From positions 6,490 through 70,489 of the forward strand of contig JAUSEE010000036.1 of assembly GCA_030650095.1 (NCBI GenBank): DNA of 64,000 nt, read 5' to 3'. The notes beneath the pieces are model-generated. The model was given only the letters and a program-made list of their open reading frames with translations. It ran no database searches and had not been told where the DNA came from. A program made the translations under genes and the position numbers. Below, in pieces: positions 1-55,984 of the stretch (the first letter of the stretch is position 1; each line of letters starts with the position of its first letter). The stretch is from Candidatus Buchananbacteria bacterium. Its GTDB lineage: Bacteria > Patescibacteriota > Patescibacteriia > 2-01-FULL-39-33.

Positions 1-48
1 CAATCTCCTAGATTGCTTCGTCGCCTTGCGGCTTCCTCGCAATGACAA
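1..48. repeat. Partial copy (3' arm) of the palindromic GTCATTGCGAG/CTCGCAATGAC repeat family, cut by the window edge
   Basis: Sequence gattgcttcgtcgccttgcggcttcctcgcaatgac matches the right arm of the repeats at 34832, 49693 and 51553. It lies inside the tgt reading frame. Confidence 0.6.
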
Positions 49-891
49 CGACACATAAAGCCGGCCATGTCTGGCTTCTCGAGTGGGAATGACGCAGTCA
101 AACATATCCACTCCGCGCCTGACAGCTTCCACGATATTTTCCGGCGTGCCCACACCCATAAGATATCTTGGTTTGTTTTCCGGCATTTGCGGAGCCAAAT
201 AATCCAAAACGGCATACATTTCCTTGTGGCTCTCCCCCACTGCCAAACCGCCAATGGCATAACCGTTGAAATCCAGCTTAATTAATTCTTTCAAACTTTC
301 CTCCCTTAAATCGCGATGCAAGCCGCCTTGGACAATGCCAAACATCAATTGAGAGCTAGTTAAAACTTTTTTATACTTTTTAGCTTCCTGGGCCCAAAGA
401 GTTGTTAAATCAACTGCTTCTTTTATTTTGGCTTTAGTGTCCTTGGAACTGGGGCAAACATCCAAAATCATGGCAATATCGCTGCCGATTATCTTTTGTA
501 TTTCCAAAACTTTCTTAGGCGTCAAAGTATGCTTGCTGCCATCCAAATGAGAATTGAATTCCACGCCCTGGGGCATTATTTTTCTTATCTTAGACAAAGA
601 AAAAACCTGAAAGCCTCCGCTGTCGGTTAAAATCGGGCCGGGCCAATTCATCATCTTATGCAACCCGCCCAATTTTTTTAAAACTTCCAAACCCGGCTGC
701 AAATACAAATGATAGGTGTTGGAAAGTATGATTTCAGCGCCCAGCGATTTGACCTCGAGAGCTGTCAGATTCTTAACTGCCGCTTTGGTGGCAATAGGCA
801 TAAAAAACGGCGTTTGAATATCGCCGTGCGCGGTTTTTAATATTCCCAACCGAGCTTGGGATTTTTTTGATTGTTTGAGAAGTCTATACAT
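1..891 (-). CDS. tgt: Queuine tRNA-ribosyltransferase (tRNA-guanine transglycosylase), C-terminus beyond the window start
   Basis: Minus-strand translation from ATG at 891 gives MYRLLKQSKKSQARLGILKTAHGDIQTPFFMPIATKAAVK...ILSNTYHLYLQPG...GPILTDSGGFQVFSL...GYAIGGLAVGE...RYLMGVGTPE...DMFDCVIPTR. These are classic Tgt motifs. Because the ORF hits the window edge it is not in the supplied ORF track. Confidence 0.85.
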   Translation of the reverse strand, partial: MYRLLKQSKKSQARLGILKTAHGDIQTPFFMPIATKAAVKNLTALEVKSLGAEIILSNTYHLYLQPGLEVLKKLGGLHKMMNWPGPILTDSGGFQVFSLSKIRKIMPQGVEFNSHLDGSKHTLTPKKVLEIQKIIGSDIAMILDVCPSSKDTKAKIKEAVDLTTLWAQEAKKYKKVLTSSQLMFGIVQGGLHRDLREESLKELIKLDFNGYAIGGLAVGESHKEMYAVLDYLAPQMPENKPRYLMGVGTPENIVEAVRRGVDMFDCVIPTREARHGRLYVSLSLRGSRKATKQSRRL

Positions 892-983
892 TATTTGATT
901 TTTTGCTGTTTTTAATCGACCAGCCCATCATAACACTGATAATTAAAATAGCCAAGTATCCCAAGCCTAAGATGTTGTTCATC

Positions 984-1778
984 TCACTCAGCTTGCTTTT
1001 TAAATACCAGGTCCTTGCTGGTGCCAAAACAAATAAAGAAACAAGGTTCCGAATATCGTTCCCGCCAATAAATATAGCCCTTTCTAAGCACCATTGTTCC
1101 AATAGAACATTCCGGACATTTTTTATCAGCGAATTCAGACCATTTGTCATTATTTATATCAAATTTGAATATTTTCGATTTTATTATCTGCGGTTGTTCG
1201 GAAAAATCATTTTCTAAAACATACAAAATGTCGTTATTTATGACAAAATCCGACCTATAAGGTCTTCTGGCAGAATCATAACCCGCGAGTTTAGCGCTGA
1301 AAATAAATTTGTCTTTAGAAAAAGATGTTTGCGTAAGTTTTCCTGTCATTTTATGGTATAAAATAAAATCTACTTGCAAACTATTTTCTGAATTGCATTC
1401 GAAGAACGGTATGTCGTCAAATTGGCTTGCTGACCCATAATCGCAGAAATAATAGACGATTATATAATTATTATCTTCAAATATCTTCGAAAATCTTTCA
1501 TTTATCGATCCCGGCGCGCTAAATAACGCGTATCTGCCATTTTGATCGAAAAAATCTACACCGCCAGAGAAGTTTGGCACGTAATAATAATTATCACTTA
1601 AGCCGAAGATCGGATTTTCATTATCAGCCGTCTGGATATCACTAAAAAAATTATTTCTTTCAATCTCCGTCATATTAACCTGTCCCGGATAACGAATATA
1701 ATCAGCAATCAGATGAAAAATGATAAATAATACAATTAGAATTAATATTAAAATTCCGAACAGACGAATAACTTTCAT
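984..1778 (-). CDS. Hypothetical membrane-anchored protein (N-terminal TM helix)
   Basis: The ORF runs 984-1829. The likely start is MKVIRLFGILILILIVLFIIF at 1778, a single hydrophobic N-terminal helix. I recognise no family. Confidence 0.5.
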   Translation of the reverse strand: MKVIRLFGILILILIVLFIIFHLIADYIRYPGQVNMTEIERNNFFSDIQTADNENPIFGLSDNYYYVPNFSGGVDFFDQNGRYALFSAPGSINERFSKIFEDNNYIIVYYFCDYGSASQFDDIPFFECNSENSLQVDFILYHKMTGKLTQTSFSKDKFIFSAKLAGYDSARRPYRSDFVINNDILYVLENDFSEQPQIIKSKIFKFDINNDKWSEFADKKCPECSIGTMVLRKGYIYWRERYSEPCFFICFGTSKDLVFKKQAE

Positions 1779-1788
1779 ATTTTTAAGA

Positions 1789-3853: not shown

Positions 3854-6646
3854 TTAATTTTTAAGACCGATAAAATAAAATAAATCCTGCAATAAATCAT
3901 CTTTATAAACGCTTTCGCCGTTATTATTTTCAATTTTACTGGGATAAGAAACATTGGGAGAAACGCCATTTGGATATTCAACTTGGCCAAAGAACTTGTC
4001 ATTGTTGCTGCCGGCTTGTTTTTGAACCAGTAGGCTATAAGAGTCATAAGAATATTTAGGATAAAAAACGGCTTTTATCTTGCCTAAAATTCCCTTGGCT
4101 TCCACCTCTTTTTTGGTTAGATCAATTTTAAAAGGCAACTTATAAACCAATAAAATATCCTTATCTTCGCCCGGCTTAAGCGTCAGCCAATTGGCAAAAA
4201 CCGTTTTGTTGTTTTCGGTGTAAATTTTAGTTGAGCTGTCTGGATCAATTGTAGCCAGCTTTTCATTCAATAACCTTTCATCTTCTTCTAAATATTCATC
4301 AGGAGTTGTAAATTCGCTATCTTTGGGCCCCTTAAAACCTTCAGCCGAAATTAGCTGACTGCCTAACGGCACATAAACCCTAATAAAGCTTCTGTTGGGA
4401 GTGTCAGTAAAGATATTATCAATGGGGCCAAAATCACTTCTATGGATAACTAAACTATCCACCACCGAACCATCGGGAGAAATGGAGGCTTGATGATAAA
4501 TCTCCTGGTTGACCACCTCATCAGTTTTACCGCCGCCAATGTTGGTGGCTACCACGCTTAAATAATCCTTTTGAGCATTTTTCATCCGGCCGTCCCAATT
4601 ATTTTGAGCCACGAATGTCTGCTCGTTTTCATCTGTCATATAAATTTGAATGTCTTTTTCTTTCAAACCTTGGCTAAAAACAGAAACCAAGCCCAGCATC
4701 TTATCCGGAGTGACATCAAAAATATTTTCAATCAATTTAGGAGCCAAATCGCTTAATATTTTCTTGGGCTGTGTTTTATCATCCGCTTCCAATTCTATGC
4801 TTTTTTGGAGTTCCATTTCAAAATTGGCCGAGCTTATTGTTTTATTATAATCCGGCATTTCAATCGAGCCGATAACATCCAAGAGATTTCCCAGCCAATC
4901 AGAATTAATGGCAATTACCCCGTCGATAGTAGCGCCATCGCTTTTATTATAAAAATAAGTTATATTCTGCGCCGAGGTCGGCCAATTAGGCCACCAATTC
5001 GCATCTTGGAATTCCCAACGAGGATTGATTAGGGTTAGAGGCTCTGGCGCTTTGAGCAGTTTTGTAAAACCGGCTCTTAAATCGTAAGTTCCGCCGGCCG
5101 GCATGGTTACGCCTTCTAAATTGCCGTTTTTAAAATCAGCTACGGCCAAACTGCCCATAAATCCGCCGGTGGCCCTAAGCTCGTTATCATTTTGAAAAAC
5201 TATAAGATATTTTTTTAAACCATTATCACCCAAAAAATTTATGGCAAATTGCATCACTTCGTCGGACTTCTTTAGACTCTCTGTAAATTTTGGCAGATTC
5301 TCTTTTAACTTCAAGAATTTTTCCTGATTCTCTTGGGGCAAATGCTTGATATTTATTTTATCCAAATTTTCCTGAGCCGAAGTTATTTGAACTAAGGCTT
5401 CATGGCTACTGGCTTTAAAATTCTTGATTCTGGAAGACAGTGAAAAATCAGAATCAGCTGAAAATTCATTTAAGCCGGCAATTAAATATTCTCCGGCCTT
5501 AGTTAATTTTTCGCCTAAATCAAGCAAATTAGTTCCGCTTCTAAAAGTATTGTTTAAAGGGATAGTACCGGCCAAAACTGTTAAAAAAGATTTTATTTCT
5601 CCCAGCTGATCCTGGGCGGAAACAAAATTCTTATTGGCAGCAGCCAGATATTCTTCCGCTTCGCCCAGCTTAAAGTCGCTCAAAGCAGTCTGGGCTGATT
5701 CTAAGCTGGTTAAGGCTTCTTCGGCCGTGCCCAAAACCTGGCCTTTGGTTTCTTTGGCGCTTTCCAGATAAAAATAAGACCTAATCGGTATGGCTATCGC
5801 CAAGGCTATGGCCAAAAAAGCCAAAAGCGGCTTTAAAGACATTTTATCTATAGACCAAGCCGAAAATATTCGTTTAAAATCTAATTTCTTTTTTTCAGCC
5901 TTATATTTTACCGGCATTTCCTTAAGCGAAACTTTTTTTGGCGGAGGCGCAACCGGAATTTCTTTGGAGGTAAAATGAACAATTTCATCGCGCTTGGTGT
6001 ACCGACTTAACAAATTTAAGTAAGCGTAGCTGATCACTTGGCCAACAACCCAAAACATATTGCCCACCTTGGAGGCGAGAAAAACAACCAAATTTATAAC
6101 TGATATTTCTTGCCATAAATCAAGTTGGTTTATTTTATGCCCTTTTTTGGCTAACGGTATTTTAGGGGATAAATCAATTTTGTAAAAAGGCTTCTTAAGC
6201 CAGCGCATGGCTATGAGCCATGATTGTTTAAGAAAATTAAGTATCTCGCTTTCTTCCAAAGACAATAATTCAAAAACATGGATTTTCTCCAAAAACTCAC
6301 CCGCCGGCAAATCTTGATAGCTAAGATTAGAATTATTATCCAAAACCGGCTTAACCCGTTCTATATAACGCCTGGTTGATAGATTGAGCAAATGAGGAGA
6401 GGAATATTGATCCAGCGGGTGGCTGACTATGTTTATGCTGACAGAATTGCCCGAAGATAAGCTTATCGGAACATCAAAAAAATCATTTGATTTGGCATGA
6501 TCAAACATAACAACGCCTAGCGATTCATCGGGGCTGTTAAAAATCTTTTTAACTCGCTTTGATAATACCGCTTTTTTCTTCGCTAGCCTTTTCTTGACCT
6601 TGGTTTTTATGGTCTTTTTGGCTGCACTTTGTCTTTTGTGAGGCAT
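3854..6646 (-). CDS. Large membrane-anchored protein, possibly a DUF4012-like family member associated with polysaccharide loci
   Basis: 930-aa ORF with a Lys-rich N-terminus, a TM helix (LKPLLAFLAIALAIAIPI) and a large extracytoplasmic part containing ATGGFMGSLAVADFKNGNL. The DUF4012 assignment is from memory of the family and is uncertain. Confidence 0.5.
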   Translation of the reverse strand: MPHKRQSAAKKTIKTKVKKRLAKKKAVLSKRVKKIFNSPDESLGVVMFDHAKSNDFFDVPISLSSGNSVSINIVSHPLDQYSSPHLLNLSTRRYIERVKPVLDNNSNLSYQDLPAGEFLEKIHVFELLSLEESEILNFLKQSWLIAMRWLKKPFYKIDLSPKIPLAKKGHKINQLDLWQEISVINLVVFLASKVGNMFWVVGQVISYAYLNLLSRYTKRDEIVHFTSKEIPVAPPPKKVSLKEMPVKYKAEKKKLDFKRIFSAWSIDKMSLKPLLAFLAIALAIAIPIRSYFYLESAKETKGQVLGTAEEALTSLESAQTALSDFKLGEAEEYLAAANKNFVSAQDQLGEIKSFLTVLAGTIPLNNTFRSGTNLLDLGEKLTKAGEYLIAGLNEFSADSDFSLSSRIKNFKASSHEALVQITSAQENLDKINIKHLPQENQEKFLKLKENLPKFTESLKKSDEVMQFAINFLGDNGLKKYLIVFQNDNELRATGGFMGSLAVADFKNGNLEGVTMPAGGTYDLRAGFTKLLKAPEPLTLINPRWEFQDANWWPNWPTSAQNITYFYNKSDGATIDGVIAINSDWLGNLLDVIGSIEMPDYNKTISSANFEMELQKSIELEADDKTQPKKILSDLAPKLIENIFDVTPDKMLGLVSVFSQGLKEKDIQIYMTDENEQTFVAQNNWDGRMKNAQKDYLSVVATNIGGGKTDEVVNQEIYHQASISPDGSVVDSLVIHRSDFGPIDNIFTDTPNRSFIRVYVPLGSQLISAEGFKGPKDSEFTTPDEYLEEDERLLNEKLATIDPDSSTKIYTENNKTVFANWLTLKPGEDKDILLVYKLPFKIDLTKKEVEAKGILGKIKAVFYPKYSYDSYSLLVQKQAGSNNDKFFGQVEYPNGVSPNVSYPSKIENNNGESVYKDDLLQDLFYFIGLKN

Positions 6647-13705: not shown

Positions 13706-14197
13706 TTTTGTCCAGATAAGCCTATAAGCCGAATTCTGTTCCCCACATGGGAGATGGCAATCTATCTTGACTGGTCATTGCTGGCCAGTTCTAGCCCCCT
13801 ACTGTATTTGGGGTTGCACCAGGTAGAGTTTACCGCAAACTGCCGGTCGCCGACAGCCGAGTCGTGTAGCTTTAGATTAAGGGGATATCCCATTCTTAGC
13901 CTAAAACACCATGACACTTTTCACCTTTCACCATAGCTTTGCTCTATAAATTCCAAATTGTAAATTACAAATATCAAATAAATTACAAATTAATTTGGAG
14001 CTTGATATTTTGGATTTGTAATTTACAAAGCGAAGCTATGGCTAGTATTGTCTCTGTGGCACTTGTCCTTACTATGCCTTGCGACATAGCAGGTGGGCGT
14101 TACCCACTACCATGACTTTAATCTTAACGATCAAAGAGTGTTCGGACTTTCCTCCCCGATTTAAAAATCGGGGTAGCCATCCAACTTATCTGGACAA
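13706..14197 (-). ncRNA. rnpB: RNase P RNA, bacterial type A, with an AT-rich insertion (about 100 nt, likely a P12 extension)
   Basis: The minus strand contains GGAGGAAAGUCCGAACAC (P4), GGUAACGCC, AAGUGCCACAGAGA, GGUGAAAGGUG, GGUAAACUCUACC and ACAGAAUUCGGCUUAUAGG, all in canonical order. P1 pairs UUGUCCAGAUAAG (5') with CUUAUCUGGACAA (3'). A consensus promoter ends about 5 nt upstream. Confidence 0.85.
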
Positions 14198-16371: not shown

Positions 16372-16770
16372 TTAAACAGCCTTATCGATGGCTTCATTAA
16401 CCAGCTTGTCAGCCTCCTTGTTGTCTTCCCTAAAAACATGGATGAATTTTACTTTTTTAAACTGCTGGGTTAAATTCCAAACCTTTATAAAAAGCGGGGC
16501 TATACCCTCATTTTTAACTTTATATTCGCGATTTAATTGCTTCACCACCAGTTCTGAATCCAGATAACAATCAACTTCTGCCACTCCCCTTTCTTGAGCT
16601 TTGGTTAAACCTAAAATAAGCGCTTGATATTCCGCTTGATTATTAGTAGCTTCGCCAATATATTTTTTAAAAAACAGTTTGTCATCACCCATTTCTAAAA
16701 CCGCGCCTAGGCCGGCCGGGCCGGGATTGCCTCTGGCTCCTCCATCGGTGTGTAAAATCGCTTTGATCAT
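16372..16770 (-). CDS. rnhA: Ribonuclease HI (RNase H type 1)
   Basis: MIKAILHTDGGARGNPGPAGLG…EATNNQAEYQALILGL…DSELVVKQL…FREDNKEAD. The in-frame Met at 16806 is probably not the start, because a plus-strand promoter occupies 16775-16802. Confidence 0.8.
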   Translation of the reverse strand: MIKAILHTDGGARGNPGPAGLGAVLEMGDDKLFFKKYIGEATNNQAEYQALILGLTKAQERGVAEVDCYLDSELVVKQLNREYKVKNEGIAPLFIKVWNLTQQFKKVKFIHVFREDNKEADKLVNEAIDKAV

Positions 16771-25252: not shown

Positions 25253-25828
25253 TTATTTATTAATTAAATCGCCAAAGCCGCAAACTCCGCCCAAGAGTGA
25301 AGCGTTGCCTTCATCTGTGTCCAAATGAAGCGACAAATCAAAATTATCATCTATCCTCACGGCGATATTATGGAAAGTCAGGCTTCTTTCGCCAATAGTT
25401 TTAACTGATAGCAATTGGCCGTTTTTTAGATTTAACTTCTTGGCCTGCTTGGGGTTGCAATGCAGATGGCGCTGGGCGATAATTATGCCTTCTTTGATTT
25501 TTATTTCGCCTTTCGGACCGATAAGCGTTCCAGAGATAGAACCAGCCACATTACCGGAGAGCCGGACCGGCGGATTTATTTTTAATTTTCTGGCATCGGT
25601 TACAGAAATTTCCACCTGGGTTTTTTCCCTTAACGGACCGATTACCCTAATTTTATCTATCTGCCCGCCTTTAGTTTTAACGGTAACCGTGTCGCTGGAA
25701 GCGAATTCGCCGTGCTGGGACAGATTTTTTAAGGGTTTAAGTTTGTAACCCAATCCAAAAAGGCTCTCTAAATCTTTTAAAGAGAGATGAAGATGGCGAG
25801 CTGAAACTTCTATTCTTACTTTGGACAT
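25253..25828 (-). CDS. pduL: PduL-type phosphotransacylase (phosphate acyltransferase)
   Basis: Two repeated PduL half-domains with a SARHLHLS-type motif and a second His-containing repeat (IAQRHLHCN). Adjacent to ackA. Confidence 0.7.
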   Translation of the reverse strand: MSKVRIEVSARHLHLSLKDLESLFGLGYKLKPLKNLSQHGEFASSDTVTVKTKGGQIDKIRVIGPLREKTQVEISVTDARKLKINPPVRLSGNVAGSISGTLIGPKGEIKIKEGIIIAQRHLHCNPKQAKKLNLKNGQLLSVKTIGERSLTFHNIAVRIDDNFDLSLHLDTDEGNASLLGGVCGFGDLINK

Positions 25829-25835
25829 AAATAAA

Positions 25836-25872
25836 GGGATCCCTCCAGGCGCTCTCGCTTAGTCGGGATGAC
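25836..25872. repeat. Half-copy of the GTCATCCCGAG/CTCGGGATGAC palindromic repeat
   Basis: gggatccctccaggcgctctcgcttagtcgggatgac. Compare the copies at 44181, 44664 and 55928. Confidence 0.55.
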
Positions 25873-34781: not shown

Positions 34782-34815
34782 CAAAACCGCCTACCATAAT
34801 AGGCGGTTATTTTAT
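34782..34815 (+). terminator. Intrinsic terminator after tdk (aaccgcctaccataataggcggtt plus T-run)
   Basis: 9-bp stem followed by attttatttc. Confidence 0.6.
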
Positions 34816-34831
34816 TTCACTGTCTTCATTT

Positions 34832-34900
34832 GTCATTGCGAACGAAGTGAAGCAATCTCATGTTTATATCAACTGGGATTGCTTCGTACCTCGCAATGAC
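34832..34900. repeat. Palindromic repeat element (GTCATTGCGAAcgaagtgaagcaatc … gattgcttcgtacCTCGCAATGAC)
   Basis: Near-perfect 69-bp inverted repeat. Same family as 49693 and 51553. The flanking modules (tttatttcac / aatgacataaaagacaatgg) are also shared with the copy at 55874. Confidence 0.65.
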
Positions 34901-34923
34901 ATAAAAGACAATGGTGTAGTAGT

Positions 34924-42056: not shown

Positions 42057-43895
42057 TTATTTCTCCACCACATCCAGCATGTTTTCAATGTCTTTTATAA
42101 TCGTCTGAGGAGTAATTTTATGTTTCTTATTATAAGCCAACTGTAATTTTCTTCTTCTGGCCACCTCTTCAATCGCCCGTTTCATGGAGCCGGTTTTCTT
42201 ATCGGCATACAAAATAACCTGGCCCAAAACATTTCTGGCCGCCCGCCCCATGGTTTGAATAAGTGCTTCCTCGCTGCGCAAAAATCCTTCCCGGTCGGCA
42301 TCCATAATCGCCACGAGCGTTACTTCCGGCAAATCCAAACCTTCACGCAAAAGATTGACACCCACCAAAATATCAAACTGGCCTTCCCTGAATTCTTTAA
42401 GTATTTCTGTTCGGCGGAATGTTTTAATATCCGAATGAAGATAACTGGCCTTGAAGCCGTTTTTTTGCAAATAAGAATCAAGGTCTTCGGCCATTTTTTT
42501 GGTGAGGGTGTTAACAATCGCTCTTTCGCCTTTTTTCACAACCCTTTTCAACTCCTCGATTAAATCATCCACCTGGCTCTTATTCTTCTGCCTATCATAA
42601 ACCGATCTGATTTCAATGGGCGGATCCACTAAGCCGGTTGGACGGATAACTTGCTCAACTGTCTTTTTGGAATTGCTTATTTCCCATTTGCCCGGCGTAG
42701 CCGAGGTAAAAATAGTCGGGCCGATACGCTGTAAAAATTCATTGAATTTCAGCGGCCGGTTATCCAAAGCGCTGGGCAGGCGCCAGCCGTATTTAATCAG
42801 GTTTTCTTTTCGAGCGTGATCGCCTTCATACATGCCTCTCACCTGCGGCAAGCCGATGTGTGATTCGTCCATAATCAAAGTAAAATCGGGCCGGCCGTTT
42901 TTATCTTTGGGAAAATAAGACAAAAGAGAATCAGGCGCTTCTCCGGCCAGCTTGCCGGTTAGGTGGCGCGAATAATTTTCAATGCCATGGCAGTAGCCCA
43001 AGCTTCTTAACATTTCCATGTCATATTTTGTCCGCCTCTCCAATCTTTCGGCTTCCAAATATAAATTATTCTTTTGAAAATATTTCAATCTGTCTTTTAA
43101 TTCGTTCTTAATGTCTCCGATAGCCCTGGCAATTTCCGGTTTGGTGGAAATAAAATGCTTAGGCGGAAAAATAATTATATCCTGCAAGCCTTCTATAATA
43201 TGCCTGGAAACTTTATCAACGATGCCGATGTCAACAACTTTTTGCTCGGCCAACTCTATCCGATAAATCACATCTTCGGCCGCCGGCCTGATTTCAAAAA
43301 CATCGCCCCGCACCCTGAAAGATCCCCTTTTTAATTCTCCCATCGTCCTGGCAAATTGGATTTTAATCAATTGGGCGATTAAATCCCGCCTCACAATATT
43401 ATGCCCGACTTCCAAATGAAGCGATGACTGGGTATAACTCACCGGCAAACCTAAATTATAAATACAAGAAACAGACGCCACAATAATGACATCGCGCCTG
43501 GTGGCAAGAGCCGCAGTAGCTTGGTGCCTTAAGCGGTCGATTTCTTCGTTGATCATGGCTTCTTTTTCTATATAGGTATCACTGGAGGGCATATAGGCTT
43601 CCGGCTGATAATAATCATAATAAGAAACGAAATAATTAACGCTATTTTTGGGAAAGAAATTTTTATATTCGCGATAAAGCTGAGCCGCCAAAGATTTGTT
43701 AGGCGCCATTACCAAAACAGGCCGATTGAAATTGGCTATAACACTGGCTGAAGTGAAAGTCTTGCCTGATCCAGTTACTCCCAAAAGAGTTTGAAAATCA
43801 TGGCCGCTTTTTAAGCCGCTGATCAATTCTTTTATAGCCTTGGGCTGATCGCCGGCCGGCTTATACTTAGATTTTAACTTGAATATTTTTTCCAT
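42057..43895 (-). CDS. uvrB: Excinuclease ABC subunit B
   Basis: MEKIFKLKSKYKPAGDQPKAIKELISGLKSGHDFQTLLGVTGSGKTF… aligns from residue 1 with UvrB. Helicase motifs are present. The start codon lies 2 nt after the tRNA-Val 3' end. Confidence 0.9.
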   Translation of the reverse strand: MEKIFKLKSKYKPAGDQPKAIKELISGLKSGHDFQTLLGVTGSGKTFTSASVIANFNRPVLVMAPNKSLAAQLYREYKNFFPKNSVNYFVSYYDYYQPEAYMPSSDTYIEKEAMINEEIDRLRHQATAALATRRDVIIVASVSCIYNLGLPVSYTQSSLHLEVGHNIVRRDLIAQLIKIQFARTMGELKRGSFRVRGDVFEIRPAAEDVIYRIELAEQKVVDIGIVDKVSRHIIEGLQDIIIFPPKHFISTKPEIARAIGDIKNELKDRLKYFQKNNLYLEAERLERRTKYDMEMLRSLGYCHGIENYSRHLTGKLAGEAPDSLLSYFPKDKNGRPDFTLIMDESHIGLPQVRGMYEGDHARKENLIKYGWRLPSALDNRPLKFNEFLQRIGPTIFTSATPGKWEISNSKKTVEQVIRPTGLVDPPIEIRSVYDRQKNKSQVDDLIEELKRVVKKGERAIVNTLTKKMAEDLDSYLQKNGFKASYLHSDIKTFRRTEILKEFREGQFDILVGVNLLREGLDLPEVTLVAIMDADREGFLRSEEALIQTMGRAARNVLGQVILYADKKTGSMKRAIEEVARRRKLQLAYNKKHKITPQTIIKDIENMLDVVEK

Positions 43896-43897
43896 AG

Positions 43898-43971
43898 TGG
43901 ATGATACTGGATTCGAACCAGTGACCTTTCGGACGTGAACCGAACGCTCTAACCAACTGAGCTAAACATCC
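43898..43971 (-). tRNA. tRNA-Val (anticodon CAC)
   Basis: Minus strand reads GGATGTTTAGCTCAGTTGGTTAGAGCGTTCGGTTCACGTCCGAAAGGTCACTGGTTCGAATCCAGTATCATCCA. The cloverleaf folds with one T:T mismatch in the acceptor stem. Anticodon loop is TTCACGT. Confidence 0.8.
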
Positions 43972-43989
43972 TTGATGTGCTTAAAAAAC

Positions 43990-44170
43990 AATCCTCTTTT
44001 TATTATCAATACACATCAGACCTTACGGTCTGAACGCTCTATCCTGGGTTGGCGTAAAATCCTGCGCCAGCTCGGATTTTTCGACGCTCAACTGCACCTC
44101 GCTTTAGCTCGGCTTGTTTTGCTTCCAACCCGTCGCTAAAAAGCGACCCAACTGAGCTAAACATCCTTGA
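43990..44170 (-). pseudogene. Degenerate partial duplication of tRNA-Val (5' 20 nt identical, D and anticodon region diverged, about 90-nt insertion, no T-arm)
   Basis: The 23-mer ccaactgagctaaacatccttga is directly repeated at 43953-43975 and 44148-44170. The upstream copy continues as …CGCCAACCCAGGATAGAGCGTTCAGACCGTAAGGTCTGA but cannot form a full cloverleaf. Confidence 0.5.
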
Positions 44171-44180
44171 TTTATATATT

Positions 44181-44216
44181 GTCATCCCGACCAAGCAAAG
44201 CGCGTGGAGGGATCCC
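44181..44216. repeat. Half-copy of the GTCATCCCGA… palindromic repeat abutting the GIY-YIG stop codon
   Basis: gtcatcccgaccaagcaaagcgcgtggagggatccc. Confidence 0.55.
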
Positions 44217-44217
44217 T

Positions 44218-44651
44218 TAAAAATTAAACATTTCATCACTCAAATCCCTCCACGTAGGATTTAAAGTTTTAATTAAATTTTGCTTCTTTTCTCTTCGCCA
44301 TTTTTTGAGTTGTTTCTCCCTAGCCAGTGCTTCACCAATATCCGTATTGTATTCATAAATGAACCCGACCTCGCTCTAAAGAGCGAGGTATCTGGGCGGT
44401 TTCAAATGGAAGGTGTCGGCTCCGCCGACATATTTCTCCTCACACTGCCCTTCATCCCCTGGCTTAAAAGCCAGGGGTATTCGGGCAGCAACATTATAAA
44501 CTAATTTTTTACAATCATATTTTTTAGTAAAACCATCAATCAATTTTTGTTTATGCTCCCAAATCCTCTTTTCTAAATTATTAGTAATACCTATGTACAA
44601 AGTGCCACTCTCACTAGCCATGATGTAAATATAATAATATTTATTATTCAT
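44218..44651 (-). pseudogene. Small GIY-YIG nuclease-family gene interrupted by an in-frame insertion of about 141 bp carrying a TAG stop
   Basis: N-terminal GIY-YIG (YYYIYIMASESGTLYIGITNNLEKRIWEHKQ…GFTKKYDCKKLVY). Then an insert containing the hairpins cccctggcttttaagccagggg and acctcgctctttagagcgaggt and an in-frame TAG. Then the frame resumes with the canonical C-terminus EYNTDIGEALAREKQLKKWRREKKQNLIKTLNPTWRDLSDEMFNF. The supplied ORF (44376-44651) stops inside the insert. Confidence 0.6.
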
Positions 44652-44663
44652 AAATTAGTTTTT

Positions 44664-44745
44664 AAGGGATCCCTCGACTTCGCTCGGGATGACAATAAGT
44701 GTGACTCGGGATGACAATCAATAGAACTCGGGATAGCCTAATTTA
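44664..44745. repeat. Tandem partial copies of the GGGATCCCTCGAC…CTCGGGATGAC repeat
   Basis: gggatccctcgacttcgctcgggatgacaataagtgtgactcgggatgacaatcaatagaactcgggatagcc. Confidence 0.55.
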
Positions 44746-44821
44746 AAAAATCTTCCATGCGCAAAAACGGCCGAGTTTCACGGCTTATAGGGGTATACTA
44801 TAATAAAACATGCCTTTTGGC

Positions 44822-44862
44822 AAATAAAAAAGCGGGCACTTGGTGTACCCGCAAAAATCTAA
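44822..44862 (-). terminator. Intrinsic terminator downstream of the Ubl gene, preceded by the conserved ttttggcaaataaaaaagc motif
   Basis: Minus-strand hairpin gcgggtacaccaagtgcccgc plus ttttttatttgcc. Confidence 0.5.
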
Positions 44863-44891
44863 ATGTTGTTTTTAAAAAGGTGCTGTTTGAA

Positions 44892-45461
44892 TTAAAGTGC
44901 CAAAATTTCAGCGATGGCAGCGAGCTTGCCGGCTTCATCAACTGGGAAAGCGATGCCATTAACCAAAATCGCCAGCAATTCATCCTGATCGGTAGAAAGC
45001 TCTACATCAATTTCGTCTCCGTTGCCGACCAAATCCTGCAAATTGGCGTCCTCTTCGTCAACCGTGACAGAAATTACGCTATCCGGATCAATGCCGACAA
45101 CATCGCGAAGAATGTTGGCAATGGTATCTGGAGTTTCCAAAGCATAATCTTGGCCATTGACCGTGCAAGTAAGCACACCGGAGCCATCATTACCCTTGAT
45201 CTTGGTGATAATCAAAATGACATCTCCATTACAAAGTGGCGTGGTCTTGATGCTGCCGACATAGCCCTTGTCCGGATCAATTTCTGCAACATTGGAAAAC
45301 ATCTTTTTATTCACGCGGACTTCTCGGCCGCCAGTCAATGCAACCCACTCAACTTCTGGCTTAATTTCTTCGGCCTTGACAGCCACATCCATAACCGTGC
45401 CACCATCAGGAACGGTAACGTCAAGAATTGGACCTGGAACAACCATAATCTGCACGTTCAT
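44892..45461 (-). CDS. Ubiquitin-like protein with two ThiS/MoaD-type beta-grasp domains and a C-terminal tail of about 20 aa after a conserved Gly (candidate BilA-like Ubl)
   Basis: Shine-Dalgarno sequence acaggagaagcagaaATG. Domain 2 (LTCTVNGQDYALETPDTIANILRDVVGIDPDSVISVTV…LVGNGDEIDVE…LLAILVNG) fits the ThiS/MoaD/Ub beta-grasp pattern. Domain 1 (VQIMVVPG…TVMDVAV…LCNGDVILIITKIKG) is similar. The tail IAFPVDEAGKLAAIAEILAL follows the putative terminal Gly. Confidence 0.55.
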   Translation of the reverse strand: MNVQIMVVPGPILDVTVPDGGTVMDVAVKAEEIKPEVEWVALTGGREVRVNKKMFSNVAEIDPDKGYVGSIKTTPLCNGDVILIITKIKGNDGSGVLTCTVNGQDYALETPDTIANILRDVVGIDPDSVISVTVDEEDANLQDLVGNGDEIDVELSTDQDELLAILVNGIAFPVDEAGKLAAIAEILAL

Positions 45462-45517
45462 TTCTGCTTCTCCTGTTTGTTTAAAAATGTTCTAAATAGA
45501 AAGTTAAAAATCGGTAG

Positions 45518-46213
45518 CTAATCTGAGGCAACTCCGTCACCGATAATCACCATCGGACGAGCGCAGACAATCAACTCCTTTTGATAATCCTCGCCATTAA
45601 ACCATTTAATCAGCTTCCAAACTGCTACGGAAGCAATATAGGAAACAGTGGGTGAAATAGACCTGTTAGTGCAAGGCGATTCCTCCGCTTCTTCGTCGCT
45701 ATAAAGTGTACTTTCCCACATCCGAATATCGGAGAGGTTCGATGGTAGAATAGCATAAACCCGGCCGTTGTCAATGGCCATTCTGGTTTCTACCATAAAT
45801 TTAACCGGCAACTTGAATTTTAGAGCGCCGTCCCAAATATCACGGCGTATATCCATGGAATCAACCATTAAGAAAATTACGCCTTTTAATTTGGAATTGG
45901 CGGTTACCGCTTCATTATGAGCGGTAATTCCTATGCCGGTAGCTTCCAAGATTATTTCCTGCAAAGCCTCAACCTTGGGCCGGCCGACATCTTTCAGGCG
46001 ATAAACCTGGTTAGGCAAATTATGATCTTCAACTTCGTCAAAGTCATAAACATGGATATCTTGGACGCCCATCTTAGCCAGGAGATAAGCCACATAACTG
46101 CCGGTGGCTCCGACTCCGATAACATGGACTTCATCTTGGAATTTACCTGGGTCAAACAAATCCAATTGCCGCCAATAATCAACCCTGACAATTTCTTGTT
46201 CTTGATTTGCCAT
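45518..46213 (-). CDS. E1-like adenylyltransferase (ThiF/MoeB/UBA family)
   Basis: Nucleotide-binding motif VHVIGVGATGSYVAYLLAKMGVQDIHVYDFDEVEDHNLPNQ, the E1/ThiF Rossmann signature. Cys-containing catalytic region (…EESPCTN…). Start at MANQEQE (46213) or at an upstream Met (46246) that overlaps the JAB gene. Confidence 0.7.
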   Translation of the reverse strand: MANQEQEIVRVDYWRQLDLFDPGKFQDEVHVIGVGATGSYVAYLLAKMGVQDIHVYDFDEVEDHNLPNQVYRLKDVGRPKVEALQEIILEATGIGITAHNEAVTANSKLKGVIFLMVDSMDIRRDIWDGALKFKLPVKFMVETRMAIDNGRVYAILPSNLSDIRMWESTLYSDEEAEESPCTNRSISPTVSYIASVAVWKLIKWFNGEDYQKELIVCARPMVIIGDGVASD

Positions 46214-46220
46214 ATCTTCA

Positions 46221-47126
46221 TTATTCCAAGGAAGCCCAGATGCCATCCCATTCTCGAACAATATCAAATTCAGCTGGCGGAGAGAAATTGCCATTACTGT
46301 CCTCTGCCGGAACAAGATCGCCTTCGGTTAAGGCCTCTTCTTGTCCCTCTGAATTACCTTCATGAAAAACATGTCTGCCCTTCCGGCGAGTGTAGACTGG
46401 AGACTCTTGTCCCTTTCTATGCCAACGATACATCGGTTGTCCGGGAGCTGGCCCAGAAGACAGACTCTTAATAACTGCCTGTTGATATTGATAATTAGGA
46501 ACTGTCTGAATAAAAACCTCTCTGGAAACTTTTTCCGCCACTTGAGCTTGCCAATATTCCTGCCTTTGAGCGTCAACAGGAGTGTAAATCTGCCAAGGAA
46601 TATCATGCCAAACAACCCCGCGCTTATAATCAAACAAGGAAAATTCAGCCCGGCCACCGCGTCCGAAAATGCCGCGCAGAAACCACTCATTGTGGCTGAA
46701 GAGCTTCATTTGATCATTATCTTGCGATGACGCATCAGTGGAATTGCTCGGATGGACATGGCCCCAAAACAAAATACTGGAGCAAAGTTCCGGATTTTCC
46801 CTGGCTAAATCAGTAAACAAATCAGCCAAGCCGTCTTCGGTCATTTCCGTGGTAGCACCGTGGACTGTCTGATTGATCAAGAAAATCTGTTCTATTAAAA
46901 ACTCATACTCGGCCAAAATCCTGACACTGCCCAGCCAGCCGATTTCATCACTGCCGCTTAATTGGGCGATAGCGAGCATATCGCTGTAGGCTTCGGGTTT
47001 GATAAGAACTTTGGGAATTGATTTTTGGGAAATAGTTGTTTGTCTGGGCTCGAATGGATGGGGAGAGAATGCCTCCGCTCCCGAAGATTTATATTGAGTT
47101 GACGCAACATAAGGATGTTGATGCAT
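46221..47126 (-). CDS. JAB/JAMM (MPN+) metalloprotease, candidate deubiquitinase-like peptidase
   Basis: Exact JAMM motif E-x(n)-HVHPSNSTDASSQD, that is H-x-H-x7-S-x2-D. The start codon overlaps the upstream stop (TGATG). Shine-Dalgarno sequence aaggag 9 nt upstream. Confidence 0.75.
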   Translation of the reverse strand: MHQHPYVASTQYKSSGAEAFSPHPFEPRQTTISQKSIPKVLIKPEAYSDMLAIAQLSGSDEIGWLGSVRILAEYEFLIEQIFLINQTVHGATTEMTEDGLADLFTDLARENPELCSSILFWGHVHPSNSTDASSQDNDQMKLFSHNEWFLRGIFGRGGRAEFSLFDYKRGVVWHDIPWQIYTPVDAQRQEYWQAQVAEKVSREVFIQTVPNYQYQQAVIKSLSSGPAPGQPMYRWHRKGQESPVYTRRKGRHVFHEGNSEGQEEALTEGDLVPAEDSNGNFSPPAEFDIVREWDGIWASLE

Positions 47127-49483
47127 CACTGGGCTAACTCCTTTTTGGTTTTTTCTACCGCCGTCCAATACTTAAATATTTCACTGCCAGCCAGATCATC
47201 CAAATTGACAGTTTCCAAATATTGAATCGCTAGTGAAGTTATGGCCGCAAACTGATATTCGGCGATAAGCTGGGCAATCATTTCTTGAATATTGCCCAAA
47301 CACGGCTCGCCCCTAGAATTAACATGGGGATGGTTAATGTTATAACCATTATAACCGCCGGCGGCCTGCCTGGTGGTATTGAAAAAAAGAAGGCCGCCAT
47401 TAGCACCATCCAAAAATATTTCTATGCGGAATTTGCCGATATCAAAAGTGAATTCTTTACCGGCTTTGTCCTTGCAAGTAATGTAAATATTGTAAGTGTG
47501 CACAATCAGCTTGCCATCCTTGGCCGTAACATTTTCCACTCCTTCAATATCAAAAAGACGATTATACTCGGTCTCAAAACCGGTTTTATCACTGGCTGTA
47601 ATATTTTTCAAAATCTTCAATTTCTGCTGCGCCTCTTTTTCTTGGCGTATTTTATTGACTAATTCTTTCTGTAAAGCGGCAACCGCCTTAGTCCATTCAG
47701 TAATAGACCTACTTAGATCGAGGCTGGCCCTTTCCTGCCTATCTTGGCAGAGGTTAACATAGCCGTCCATCGCCCTTCGGCGACGAATTTCTTTAATCGC
47801 CTTATCGCGCTCAATTTTTTCTGCCGGTGTCTTATTCAGCTCTATTACCGTTAATTCCAAAATACGACGATAAATATCAATCCCACCACTCATTTCCCTA
47901 TAGCCCAAGGGGATATAAATATACAAATTATGGTCCAATAACTCCGCTACGGTAAAAAGCGATTCGCTATCTATAATTTCCACACCCATGTCGATTGGTT
48001 TAAAATACTGCCAACCATAACGACTATTATTAGTACTAAAGCCGAAAATTTTGTCCGGCATATCAACTTTGTCCGATAAAGTATTATTAGCTGGTGCGGC
48101 ATGTAGCCAAATATGGAATAAATTATCATTAATAGGCTGAAACATTTTTCTAAGTCCTTGACAATTATGACAAATAATTTTCTTATTTAAAACCGGCAAA
48201 AGAATGTTCTCGGTCTCGGTTTTCATTTTAGCCATATTACCGACACGGTTAGAATTATTGAAAATAACCACCTGAGGAGCATTAATCAAAGCCAATCTTT
48301 CCTCGGAGCTCAATTTAAATATATTAGCTGTTTCCTCTAGTACCTTTTCCAAAATGGCATAATCATCTGATCTGTCCTTATGGACAGCATCATGGAAAAT
48401 ATAAAGATTATTGCCAATAACCTCGGCTACCGCATAACCCTCTGTTTCTGCTATAACTATGCCCAAACCAGAGGGCAAATAAGACCCATCGGCACAACCA
48501 ATCCTATGACCCCACATTATTGGCGGAGTTTCAACTTCACAATTGCCAGAGGGAGCCGACCAGATATTAATATGCAGAAATCTGCCAGCTTTGTCATCGG
48601 GGATAGGCTCAAAAAGATGTTGGTGAGGCACCCTAACTATGGCGCCATGAAAAATTTCTCTCGGCAATATTCGCTCAATAATGTCTTTCAATTTATCTTG
48701 CACCATTTCGCCATCCCAACTTTTAAAGATAATATCCATCGGCAAAAGCTTTCGCGCTTCTTCAACACTAGCAGCCAAAAGAACAGGCAAATATTTTTTG
48801 ATCTGCTGACTTATTGCCCGGCCATAAACTTCATCCGGACAATTAGGAATTTTTCTAAAACAAATCAGGCGTTTGGTTGGGTAATATTCAATATCAAGCA
48901 ACAAATCACAATCAGTTGTTAATTCGGCTTCAGCCATATTCAAAAATCTGCCCAAAACTATATTGAGCTGATCTGTAACTGGGCTAATACTTAATGTATC
49001 GTCTACAAGACCTTCATGGAAAACAATTTTTTTAACACCGCTGGCCTCAGTTAAAATATCCCTGTATAAATCAGGATAATACTGGGGCGAGAAATGTCTC
49101 ATAACATTGTTTAATAATTGCGCCCAATGATCGCATCTGGTGCCCTTGGGTTTGGAAACTGTCAGATCGGGGTATTGTATTTTTACTTCCTCCACGGGAG
49201 TTTCTTCTGCTATTTCATCAGCCACTTCTTCATCTTCAAATACTGAGAAATCAAAATTAACAGTATTGGAAGGTGCCACTGCCAATTTTACTATACCGGG
49301 AATACTGGTTTCGCTATGTTCAAAAACATCAAAGCCCAAAATACCCAAAGCGTTAACAATATTATTTTGCTCAAAAACCAAACCATTCCAGCCATCAATT
49401 TCCATTTTTACAAAAGATATTTGAGCCACTATGAGTTTTTTTTGCTTTTTATTAGAGACATCTGCAATAAAGAAATTACGCAT
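47126..49483 (-). CDS. Large protein (785 aa) with a C-terminal E2/UBC-like domain, plus about 600 aa of unassigned N-terminal sequence and a coiled-coil
   Basis: Shine-Dalgarno sequence aaaggagaaaactATG. The C-terminus …GYNGYNINHPHVNSRGEPCLGNIQEMIAQL… matches the E2 catalytic signature HPN-x3/4-G-x-[IP]-C-L. First gene of a four-gene operon with translational coupling. Confidence 0.65.
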   Translation of the reverse strand: MRNFFIADVSNKKQKKLIVAQISFVKMEIDGWNGLVFEQNNIVNALGILGFDVFEHSETSIPGIVKLAVAPSNTVNFDFSVFEDEEVADEIAEETPVEEVKIQYPDLTVSKPKGTRCDHWAQLLNNVMRHFSPQYYPDLYRDILTEASGVKKIVFHEGLVDDTLSISPVTDQLNIVLGRFLNMAEAELTTDCDLLLDIEYYPTKRLICFRKIPNCPDEVYGRAISQQIKKYLPVLLAASVEEARKLLPMDIIFKSWDGEMVQDKLKDIIERILPREIFHGAIVRVPHQHLFEPIPDDKAGRFLHINIWSAPSGNCEVETPPIMWGHRIGCADGSYLPSGLGIVIAETEGYAVAEVIGNNLYIFHDAVHKDRSDDYAILEKVLEETANIFKLSSEERLALINAPQVVIFNNSNRVGNMAKMKTETENILLPVLNKKIICHNCQGLRKMFQPINDNLFHIWLHAAPANNTLSDKVDMPDKIFGFSTNNSRYGWQYFKPIDMGVEIIDSESLFTVAELLDHNLYIYIPLGYREMSGGIDIYRRILELTVIELNKTPAEKIERDKAIKEIRRRRAMDGYVNLCQDRQERASLDLSRSITEWTKAVAALQKELVNKIRQEKEAQQKLKILKNITASDKTGFETEYNRLFDIEGVENVTAKDGKLIVHTYNIYITCKDKAGKEFTFDIGKFRIEIFLDGANGGLLFFNTTRQAAGGYNGYNINHPHVNSRGEPCLGNIQEMIAQLIAEYQFAAITSLAIQYLETVNLDDLAGSEIFKYWTAVEKTKKELAQ

Positions 49484-49692
49484 GAGTTTTCTCCTTTTGG
49501 CTGTTTTTATGCCCTAGAACCATTGTTCTAAAACTTTTTTGGTTGTCAATGATCTATCTCCTCTTAAACAAAAAGAGGAAAGGCTAAAAAGACAAAATTT
49601 GCCTGTTTAGCTTTTCCTCCTGATTTGAAATTATGTAACTCTTTACTCTAACAAAATAGGTGATTTATGTCAACCAAAAAATATGTTTTTCT

Positions 49693-49771
49693 GTCATTGC
49701 GAGCATAGCGAAGCAATCCCATTTAATCAAATACGGGATTGCTTCAGTCGCTTAAGCTCCTTCGCAATGAC
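49693..49771. repeat. Palindromic repeat element (GTCATTGCGAGcatagcgaagcaatccc …spacer… gggattgcttcag…CTTCGCAATGAC)
   Basis: 79-bp composite inverted repeat at the upstream boundary of the Ubl/E1/JAB/E2 island. Confidence 0.65.
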
Positions 49772-49802
49772 AATTATTGTTATATTTTATCTAATTTAAA
49801 AC

Positions 49803-51514: not shown

Positions 51515-51675
51515 CGCTTGTCCGCTGTCTTCTTGGTTAATATTTTGTTTCTGTCATTGCGAGGCACGAAGCAATCCCAGTTGATATAAACATGAGATTG
51601 CTTCACTTCGTTCGCAATGACAAATGAAGACAGCGGAAAAGACTTCATCTATGGGCTAACGCCCATAGTATTTCG
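51515..51675. repeat. Composite repeat: outer inverted repeat (ccgctgtcttc…gaagacagcgg) enclosing a GTCATTGCGAG…CTCGCAATGAC palindrome (51553-51631), followed by the module cttcatctatgggctaacgcccatagtatttcg
   Basis: Nested palindromes. The 3' module is about 90% identical to the reverse complement of 55874-55906. Confidence 0.65.
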
Positions 51676-51706
51676 TGGATAAAATAAAAAAATCCCCAAT
51701 AATCTA

Positions 51707-55815: not shown

Positions 55816-55829
55816 TAATATTTTAACTG

Positions 55830-55865
55830 TAAAAAAATAACACCCTTTTGGGGTGTTATTTTTAT
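55830..55865 (+). terminator. Intrinsic terminator after the P-type ATPase (aacacccttttggggtgtt plus T-run)
   Basis: 8-bp stem followed by atttttatttc. Confidence 0.6.
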
Positions 55866-55873
55866 TTCACCTA

Positions 55874-55984
55874 CGAAATATTATGGGTGTTAGCCCATAG
55901 ATGAAGCATTTTCCATTGTCTTTATGTGTCATCCCGAGCGCAGTCGAGGGATCCCTCCATTTCGCTACGCTTCAGTCGGGATGA
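55874..55984. repeat. Composite repeat: the tatgggtgttagcccata module plus a GTCATCCCGAGcgcagtcgagGGATCCC…CTTCAGTCGGGATGAC palindrome
   Basis: Shares a block of about 75 bp (in reverse complement) with 51621-51690, and the aatgacataaaagacaatgg module with 34896-34915. Confidence 0.6.

Follow-up and report, generated by a model that had tools for sequence, protein, structure and literature searches.

Palindromic repeats recur throughout a 64-kb stretch of Patescibacteria DNA (Candidatus Buchananbacteria; hereafter, the window), which raises the question of what kind of element they are and why two of them bracket a gene for a small GIY-YIG nuclease. A first-pass annotation had proposed a single dispersed family, and all of the coordinates that it gave hold. 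The motif GTCATYSCGA was found 13 times in the window (both strands), compared with 0.22 expected (mean over 100 dinucleotide shuffles; maximum, 2). An unfiltered search with a covariance model, trained on 48 units of which 4 come from the window, revealed 12 hairpin units at 8 loci, with scores of 21-52 bits (E ≤ 0.004) and a next-best match of 14.5 bits. These units form one dispersed palindromic family with shared flanking modules and two stem types in the window, A (ATTGC/GCAAT) and B (ATCCC/GGGAT). Local tandem duplication does not account for the family: its copies are spread over 56 kb, assembled contigs end inside them, and the same motifs turn up in other organisms, on hundreds of contigs. 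The repeats have no Rfam family (a window scan at gathering thresholds matched RNase P RNA and one tRNA only), and searching the literature for the literal motif returned chance primer matches only.

The repeating and functional unit of this family is the half-copy hairpin and not the full palindrome. Each unit is a hairpin of 24-36 nt in which (T)GTC leads into the first arm of a 5-bp stem (AT-NN-C) and GA; next comes a 2-bp inner stem that encloses a tetraloop or a longer insert, and a second GA, the complementary arm and a C complete the unit. GTC, AT, GA, A, AT and C are invariant in 48 aligned units. Two units set tail-to-tail make up a palindrome of 58-79 bp. Full copies had been described as near-perfect inverted repeats of 70-80 bp, but their two halves have different loops, so the palindrome is only partial. 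The arrangement is tail-to-tail in 4/4 pairs in the window, and elsewhere we found 59 tail-to-tail versus 10 head-to-head pairs. Left arms of the form GTCAT-NNN are followed by their own complement and not by those of other types (TTC, 68/76; TCC, 71/90; TGC, 16/19). Furthermore, the inner pair 15-22, which played no part in unit selection, covaries (GC in 29 sequences, CG in 11 and AU in 5). Covariation of the stems next to an unchanging GTC and C points to the hairpin as the feature that is recognized. The evidence for structure rests on covariation because folding of single units with nearest-neighbour DNA parameters yields weak hairpins (-2 to -7 kcal/mol, z not significant). Full pairs fold strongly as DNA (-17 to -26 kcal/mol, z = -5 to -7), and the resulting single long hairpin would compete with the unit structure.

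The units lie mostly between genes: 11 of the 12 are in non-coding DNA, which accounts for 12% of the window. Three A pairs and one B pair are complete within it. The first A pair (34828-34861 (+) and 34873-34904 (-); 40.8 and 22.1 bits) is located between the convergent tdk and truB-sua5 genes, downstream of the tdk terminator, a terminator-like hairpin at 34784-34810. The second (49689-49722 (+) and 49733-49775 (-); 34.9 and 23.4 bits) lies downstream of the terminator of a cupredoxin gene (49828-49803). The third (51549-51580 (+) and 51592-51625 (-); 23.5 and 40.8 bits) sits in a composite element at 51518-51700, next to the terminator of the upstream gene (51715-51691). Here, the pair is nested in an outer 11-nt inverted repeat (CCGCTGTCTTC/GAAGACAGCGG at 51518-51528 and 51626-51636) and is joined by a side module that carries the hairpin CTATGGGCTAACGCCCATAG. 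The B pair (55924-55957 (+) and 55946-55989 (-); 46.7 and 34.5 bits), whose units overlap at GGGATCCC, belongs to a composite element at 55852-56007 that is an inverted homologue of 51531-51697. Nesting and shared side modules, both reported in the first-pass annotation, are therefore real: the side-module segments 51596-51697 and 55852-55953 are 78% complementary, and 51531-51562 and 55976-56007 are 88% complementary. In addition, 34815-34905 and 51548-51638 have 96% reverse-complement identity and represent two near-identical copies. A solitary B unit (25834-25876 (-); 33.2 bits) precedes the start codon of a PTAC-family gene (25253-25828 (-); Pfam) by 8 nt. Finally, the "variant" noted at 27756-27786 is real in the form of a collapsed, degenerate palindrome at 27753-27792 (TGTCATTGC-N15-GCAATGACA; 9.7 bits) that has kept the outer 9 nt of each arm of two A units (DNA fold, -9 kcal/mol; z = -3.1).

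One further pair, of A type, is embedded in frame in tgt. Its right half, an A unit at 7-50 (-) (element 1-50; 21.1 bits, E = 0.004), is the copy that had been recognized inside the tgt frame at the window start. Its left half lies just outside the window, and the full pair is visible in Logan contig L001 (13782-13848). The annotated Tgt protein P0121 (376 aa, 100% identical) reads through the repeat as SLSLRGSRKATKQSRRLLRFARNDS, and Tgt relatives at 80-86% identity have a loop of ~10 aa in its place. Similar pairs are embedded in frame in uvrB of other Patescibacteria, and the segments that these repeats add to Tgt and UvrB measure 20-45 aa. Rickettsia palindromic elements (RPEs), which Ogata and colleagues are said to have described in 2000, reportedly insert in frame into conserved protein-coding genes and keep the frame. 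The in-frame palindromic insertions in tgt and uvrB are reminiscent of such elements. RPEs, at about 100-150 bp, are longer than the repeats described here, and we know of no GTCAT hairpin motif that the two share. RPEs are mentioned in PMC1458961 and PMC10969869.

Strong folding of the full pairs, together with their location at gene 3' ends or between genes, would suit transcription terminators or 3' stabilizing hairpins like some REP sequences, a role that the first-pass annotation had suggested and that would make any link to a nuclease gene secondary. However, a separate canonical T-tract terminator lies between gene and pair at four sites (34784-34810, 49828-49803, 51715-51691 and 55840-55868), the pairs themselves have no T tract, and the terminator scan lists none of them. 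The tgt pair, moreover, is translated. A terminator has no use for a conserved unpaired GTC and C or for the strict orientation of the units around the nuclease gene (see below), and RNA is not bound by SsnA, the Neisseria homologue of that nuclease (PMC11893778). We thus consider it extremely unlikely that the repeats function at the RNA level.

The two remaining units flank the GIY-YIG gene, here called ssnA (44217-44651 (-); putative, and a pseudogene in the window). This gene lies exactly between two inverted B units, in the arrangement TGTCATCCCGA..GGGATCCCTTAAAAA-ssnA-TTTTTAAGGGATCCC..TCGGGATGACA. Upstream of ssnA, a unit in sense orientation at 44664-44697 (-) (element 44664-44745) lies 13 nt before the ATG and has the top score in the window (51.7 bits); behind it are the 5' fragments TGTCATCCCGAG (44706-44716) and ATCCCGAG (44727-44734), and the same tandem fragments are carried by a relative, L203. 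Directly 3' of ssnA, a unit at 44177-44218 (+) (36.1 bits) has the antisense orientation and extends into the stop codon. Flanking of the GIY-YIG gene had been noted correctly, but the gene's precise position between inverted units and its probable link to the repeats, as the gene for the cognate Ssn nuclease of this family, were missed; the flanking is not incidental. The repeats were also said to flank a Ubl island, which looks coincidental: genes 44789-47449 are syntenic in L203 and a second relative, L213, with or without repeats.

The window copy of ssnA is interrupted. Its only Pfam match is to GIY-YIG (profile positions 1-51 of 78), and an unrelated, GC-rich structured insert of 138 nt at 44358-44495 (-) introduces an in-frame stop. 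This insert (fold energy -67 kcal/mol, z = -6.5) is outside the repeat family; no further copy of it was found, and it has no Rfam match. Permissive Rfam searches around ssnA and the tRNA (43880-44760) likewise yielded no match for the repeats. Its boundary is taken from blastn coordinates, as a MAFFT alignment was uninformative. Both halves of ssnA around the insert share one frame, and the reconstructed protein of 98 aa has full-length homologues at 76-78% identity. The L203 orthologue (98 aa) is intact and lacks the insert. Because the window ssnA is broken, current activity would require another copy of the gene in this genome.

In Neisseria, the nuclease SsnA is specific for ssDNA and binds the hairpin repeats known as NTS/SRM (Chenal et al., Nat Commun 2025, PMC11893778). 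The reconstructed protein is 49% identical over 85 aa to the N. gonorrhoeae SsnA orthologue (BLASTP, pairwise E = 1e-29), and the gonococcal residues Y6, Y17 and E64, which were mutated in the Neisseria study (PMC11893778), have Y9, Y19 and E66 of the reconstructed protein as their aligned counterparts. A tblastn search found a single site in one N. gonorrhoeae chromosome (E = 4e-20; the published homology criterion for Ssn is E < 1e-10), and the ORF at this site encodes 94 aa, carries Y6/Y17/E64 and lies amid canonical NTS repeats. The PDB holds no Ssn structure, with distant UPF0213 proteins only, and NCBIfam has no model specific to Ssn. These results indicate that the window contains a new example, in a Patescibacteria genome, of the Ssn/SRM system described in 2025.

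The repeats agree with this assignment. Cutting by SsnA requires GTC upstream of the palindrome and binding requires a C after it (PMC11893778); the window units likewise are oriented hairpins with GTC(AT) just 5' of the palindrome and C just 3'. In both systems the copies are mostly intergenic (in N. meningitidis, 2% of NTS fall within genes; PMC11893778), with 12 units at 8 loci in the 64 kb examined here, and in both a single-domain GIY-YIG gene of ~95 aa with conserved catalytic residues is bracketed by repeats, an NTS-ssnA-NTS architecture that has already been described (PMC11893778). In contrast to the perfect 8-9-bp stem of NTS, the stem here is 5 bp followed by tandem GA and 2 bp. The window units also differ in being mostly tail-to-tail palindromes, one of them in frame in tgt, in having a pseudogene as the local ssnA, and in their host, a Patescibacteria MAG; the Ssn survey covered the NCBI reference/representative genome set, and Patescibacteria are unmentioned there (PMC11893778). 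The published SRM pattern, HGTCWYN(0-2)YYVSBRHN(0-5)WNVSBRGN(0-2)RNCYNB, which is a search heuristic derived from 29 genomes and not a definition, had 0 matches in the window and 9 in 80 related loci. It found 7 NTS matches in the N. gonorrhoeae locus used as a positive control, so the absence of window matches is not an implementation error. The window hairpins, a class known from their sequence, thus differ from those that the pattern describes. Taken together, we conclude that the repeats are very probably SRM (generalized NTS) hairpins, which an Ssn-family GIY-YIG nuclease recognizes when they are single-stranded.

The analysis also covered 80 homologous loci from Patescibacteria, Acidobacteriota, Proteobacteria, Chloroflexota, Planctomycetota, Clostridia and others. 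In 50/76 of them the 200 nt upstream of ssnA contain a sense unit, and in 52/75 the 200 nt downstream contain an antisense unit, against a background of 0.015 units per 200-nt flank and orientation; 39/71 loci have the unit-ssnA-inverted unit arrangement on both flanks. The stem types of the two units around one gene differ in 28/45 loci, and such mixing is unlike strict transposon ends. We saw no ssnA flanked by A-type units. Activity is abolished when the Neisseria palindrome is altered with its structure kept (PMC11893778), so a single enzyme probably does not act on A as well as B units. A Saccharibacteria MAG has two copies of ssnA (L002 and L005), but these share only 71% identity and so do not delimit a recently moved unit.

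Classical MITEs, that is, IS deletion derivatives mobilized in trans by a DDE (or Y1) transposase with specificity for TGTCAT...ATGACA ends, could also account for palindromic pairs with defined ends, for two copies that are near-identical, for assemblies that break at pairs and for presence/absence among relatives; the GIY-YIG gene would then be a passenger. Yet the gene that is consistently bracketed, in about 50 of 76 genomes and in many phyla, encodes a GIY-YIG protein and not a transposase. Covarying stems next to a fixed GTC and C also argue for recognition of the hairpin, and target-site duplications are absent at every pair. The MITE reading is further weakened by 80 loci from a viral catalogue (711 kb), which hold more than 130 A-type units and, in a search for Ssn homologues, no such homologue. 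We therefore regard it as very improbable.

Comparison of positions between relatives revealed turnover. In L203 (UvrB 87% identical), this site is likewise occupied by the cassette, there with an intact gene, and L213 (UvrB 80% identical) has neither cassette nor pair at the orthologous site; one extra pair in L203 is missing from both the window genome and L213. Two independent short-read contigs of the window genome end inside repeats; one of them, Logan contig L283, ends within the element at 55852-56007. No target-site duplication was found at any pair in the window, where the first-pass annotation had proposed to look for them, nor did we find an excision footprint or, in the window, an "empty" copy of a shared flank module. 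Mobility by the Ssn enzyme is thus not demonstrated, as neither target-site duplication nor excision footprint was found.

These comparisons also bear on whether the pairs are homing targets, with ssnA as a selfish gene that copies itself into pre-existing palindromes via nicking and repair from a gene-containing copy. The position of ssnA at the exact centre of a B-type pair, the abutting units at GGGATCCC in the gene-less B pair, and flanking types that often differ, as expected if flanks belong to the target, are consistent with homing. However, the empty orthologous site in L213 is without any pair, and no site was found that is a bare pair in one genome and gene-filled in another. We strongly doubt that homing explains the family.

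Returning to recognition by an Ssn-family enzyme, analogy to Neisseria SsnA suggests how the system may operate. The nuclease, a single-domain GIY-YIG enzyme of ~95 aa, would bind the hairpin together with the C on its 3' side and place a nick in the single strand a few nucleotides before GTC, with no action on dsDNA, RNA or the complementary strand. The ssnA gene between a sense and an antisense unit constitutes an IS-like cassette. The palindromes of 58-79 bp have the same tail-to-tail layout without the gene and therefore behave like gene-less, REP/BIME- or MITE-like derivatives that have reached positions behind terminators and, now and then, in-frame positions within genes. The enzyme may cut the variant hairpins and drive their spread, and it could have a host role, for example in restricting incoming ssDNA.

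Two known systems offer parallels. As in REP/BIME sequences with their RAYT proteins (REP-associated tyrosine transposases), the hairpin repeats of the window are short, have a conserved motif that stays unpaired on the 5' side, and cluster in inverted pairs with accessory modules; a single-copy nuclease gene between inverted repeats and presumed recognition on single-stranded DNA are further common features. Unlike RAYT, which is an HUH/Y1 transposase, the nuclease here is GIY-YIG, and the motif is GTCAT as opposed to GTAG in REP. IS200/IS605 elements (TnpA), single-strand "peel and paste" transposons, similarly have subterminal hairpins that are recognized as ssDNA and cleaved a few nucleotides outside the hairpin, and they generate no target-site duplications. 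There, however, an HUH transposase acts and the hairpins of the two ends share one strand, whereas the two units here lie on opposite strands, which leaves a single recognizable unit per strand. It is possible, although we hold it only tentatively, that the cassette and the gene-less pairs form a true transposon family whose "transposase" is a GIY-YIG single-strand nickase of 95 aa and which in Patescibacteria has repeatedly entered tgt and uvrB in frame. Because the recognition hairpins are on opposite strands, such a family would be a class without a described mechanism.

Together, these data extend the Ssn/SRM system to the Candidate Phyla Radiation and reveal that a large branch of the family, spread over many phyla, uses a class of hairpin that goes undetected by the published pattern; surveys that use this pattern undercount the system because they miss this class. 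Each pair of Ssn and hairpin is also a candidate molecular tool, as a nuclease that would cut ssDNA in a sequence-specific manner. The 2025 study left open whether the repeats owe their spread to Ssn itself (PMC11893778), and the filled, intact and empty sites described here, together with the insertions in tgt and uvrB, provide material to address this question. If the transposon reading is true, the protein loops of essential genes (tgt and uvrB) would be remodelled by these elements, as RPEs do in Rickettsia.

The repeats that the first-pass annotation had described as a dispersed family are indeed one, spread over eight loci of the window (1-55989), and they belong to a nuclease-repeat system published in 2025. 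All of the earlier coordinates hold on re-inspection of the window sequence, but the 70-80-bp palindrome proved not to be the repeating unit, which is instead the half-copy, an oriented DNA hairpin. The core GTCATYSCGA has 13 matches across both strands of the window versus 0.22 from dinucleotide shuffles. A covariance model trained on 48 units (four of them from the window) and run without filters found 12 units at 21-52 bits, with the next match at only 14.5 bits. These units carry one of two stem types, A (GTC-ATTGC...GCAAT-C) or B (GTC-ATCCC...GGGAT-C), and 11 of the 12 lie in non-coding DNA in a window that is ~88% coding.

When 48 distinct 26-nt units drawn from many genomes were aligned, the invariant pattern was T-GTC-AT..C-GA....GA-G..AT-C. 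Covariation is seen at the variable positions of the stem: after a left arm GTCAT-NNN comes its own complement and then C (for example, 68/76 for TTC, 71/90 for TCC, 24/32 for CTC and 16/19 for TGC), not the complement of other types. The inner pair, which had no role in sequence selection, also covaries (GC in 29, CG in 11 and AU in 5 sequences), and two GA dinucleotides lie opposite each other, where they would form tandem G·A pairs. A full copy consists of two units arranged tail-to-tail with the GTCAT ends outward, as in all four window pairs and in 59 pairs elsewhere versus 10 head-to-head. In nearest-neighbour DNA folding, the energies of single units were weak and non-significant; a whole pair, folding into one long hairpin, reached strong values of -17 to -26 kcal/mol.

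Two window segments, 34815-34905 and 51548-51638, match each other in inverted orientation at 96% identity, and the composite elements 51531-51697 and 55852-56007 are mosaic, with flanks ~80-88% identical yet pairs of different type. In two independent short-read contigs from the window's genome, the sequence terminates within a pair. Target-site duplications, a check named by the first-pass annotation, were not seen anywhere. Separately, a 50-nt stretch at 16627-16676 is 82% identical to 55995-56044 (..TTAGTAGCTTCGCCAATATATTTTTTAA..); both copies lie at the 3' ends of minus-strand genes and may encode a shared C-terminal peptide.

A GIY-YIG gene, ssnA (44217-44651, minus strand), sits exactly between two inverted B units in the layout TGTCATCCCGA..GGGATCCCTTAAAAA [gene] TTTTTAAGGGATCCC..TCGGGATGACA. 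The Pfam match to its product stops after the first two thirds of the domain, and the gene is broken by an insert of 138 nt that is GC-rich and carries an in-frame stop (44358-44495, minus strand; ends AATG...CATT; -67 kcal/mol, z = -6.5), with the two halves sharing a frame. Once the insert is removed, the product (98 aa) can be aligned over its full length with 95-98-aa proteins, mostly from Patescibacteria, at up to 78% identity. No second copy of the insert was found in any of the DNA examined, and it has no Rfam match. A solitary B unit (25834-25876) precedes the start codon of a phosphate propanoyltransferase-family gene by 8 nt, with no obvious ribosome-binding site in between; its orientation and spacing pattern match those of the unit upstream of ssnA.

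A scan for loci encoding relatives, covering one genome per species, yielded 80 in Patescibacteria, Acidobacteriota, Gamma-, Beta- and Alphaproteobacteria, Chloroflexota, Planctomycetota, Elusimicrobia, Clostridia and others. With a detector that accepted only perfect 5-bp stems, a sense unit was found within 200 nt upstream of the gene at 50/76 loci, an antisense unit within 200 nt downstream at 52/75 and both together at 39/71, against 0.015 expected from background density per 200-nt flank and orientation. Units lie close to the gene, at a median distance of ~32 nt on its upstream side and ~22 nt on its downstream side.

Chenal et al. (Nat Commun 2025; PMC11893778) described a system of precisely this type. 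SsnA of Neisseria, a 94-aa single-domain GIY-YIG protein (CDD cd10448), binds the hairpin repeat NTS (CGTCATTCCCGCGMAVGCGGGAATCYRG) only as single-stranded DNA and cuts a few nucleotides upstream of it; it does not act on the reverse strand, dsDNA or RNA. Cutting is governed by the three nucleotides preceding the palindrome and binding by the C following it, and SsnA reduces transformation by NTS-bearing DNA. The authors generalised the repeats to 'Ssn-related motifs' (SRM) and pointed out the IS-like NTS-ssnA-NTS layout and a REP/RAYT analogy, without settling where the repeats come from. Patescibacteria are never mentioned in the paper, whose survey was based on the NCBI reference/representative genome set (PMC11893778).

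Searching a plasmid collection with the window protein (tblastn) gave a single site (E = 4e-20) in an N. gonorrhoeae chromosome wrongly filed there, a 94-aa ORF with canonical NTS all around and with Y6, Y17 and E64, the residues mutated in PMC11893778. Because the window protein is 49% identical to this gonococcal SsnA with Y6/Y17/E64 aligned (BLASTP), it falls within the Ssn family. The window repeats share the architecture of GTC, palindrome and C, and ssnA is likewise flanked by them. In contrast, the window's hairpin class (5 bp, GA/GA and a short inner stem) is unmatched by the published degenerate SRM pattern, which had 0 matches in the window and, across the 80 related loci, only 9 versus ~300 units by the stem-based detector, and recovered 7 NTS at the gonococcal locus as a positive control. 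This Ssn branch thus uses a hairpin class beyond the reach of the published pattern. Canonical NTS-type units occur in Patescibacteria too, as in the metagenome contig L248 (GTCATTCCCGCGAAAGCGGGAATCC). The window family is a variant hairpin in a host group new for the published system.

Synteny around uvrB revealed three states of one site. The unit-ssnA-unit cassette is present with a broken gene in the window; in L203 (UvrB 87% identical) its gene is intact and lacks the 138-nt insert; and L213 (80%) has no units and no gene, only a 95-nt spacer between a conserved hairpin and tRNA-Val. An additional pair in L203 is missing from the window and L213. A small hairpin with a T run (taagccgtNNactcggccgttttt) upstream of the site (window 44758-44790, L203 3280-3312, L213 3797-3829) is kept in all three despite diverged surrounding spacer. 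In the window at 43952-44171, a 24-nt direct repeat (ATCAAGGATGTTTAGCTCAGTTGG), made up of the 5' end of tRNA-Val and 4 further nt, flanks a 196-nt insert missing in L203. Part of this insert resembles the D and anticodon arms of the tRNA, so it may be what is left of a tandem tRNA copy that has decayed and acquired an insertion of its own. Elsewhere, the RNase P RNA match (13709-14192, minus strand) spans 484 nt although the model has 367 positions, which points to at least one insertion in that gene.

The copy reported inside tgt was borne out: Tgt contains the translated sequence of the pair at the window start. An annotated Tgt from a Candidatus Buchananbacteria MAG (P0121) is 100% identical to the window's; the pair contributes 26 residues in place of a ~10-aa variable loop, the C-terminal 70 residues are still conserved, and relatives at 80-86% identity are without the pair. 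Complete tail-to-tail pairs also lie in frame within uvrB at two or three different positions in four other Patescibacteria contigs (L215 4381-4498, L250 about 5294-5368, L248 1478-1535 and L226 5345-5419), adding 20-45 residues; the first L248 unit is a canonical Neisseria-type NTS. The uvrB of L213 has an in-frame insert of a different repeat type (about 5351-5519), whose CCCCTT..GGGGAGG hairpins translate as ..LPLTKGK..SPYQGE..; a similar sequence at window 27793-27830 follows a degenerate palindrome (27753-27792).

The suggestion that the repeats act as terminators is not supported, because a separate canonical terminator stands between gene and pair at four loci and the pairs are without a T tract. 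Most likely, the units are DNA-level recognition hairpins of an Ssn nuclease, and gene-less pairs behave as non-autonomous relatives of the cassette. It is also possible, and would be more novel, that the cassette is a transposon mobilised by a GIY-YIG single-strand nickase. Among the genes that a study of Patescibacteria predicts other bacteria to have received from this group is one for a GIY-YIG-domain protein (PMC12455944), which would fit mobility if that protein is a member of the Ssn family. By analogy with Neisseria, restriction of incoming single-stranded DNA is a candidate role that this Ssn could have. Patescibacteria rely on DNA uptake, so such a role could be relevant to them.
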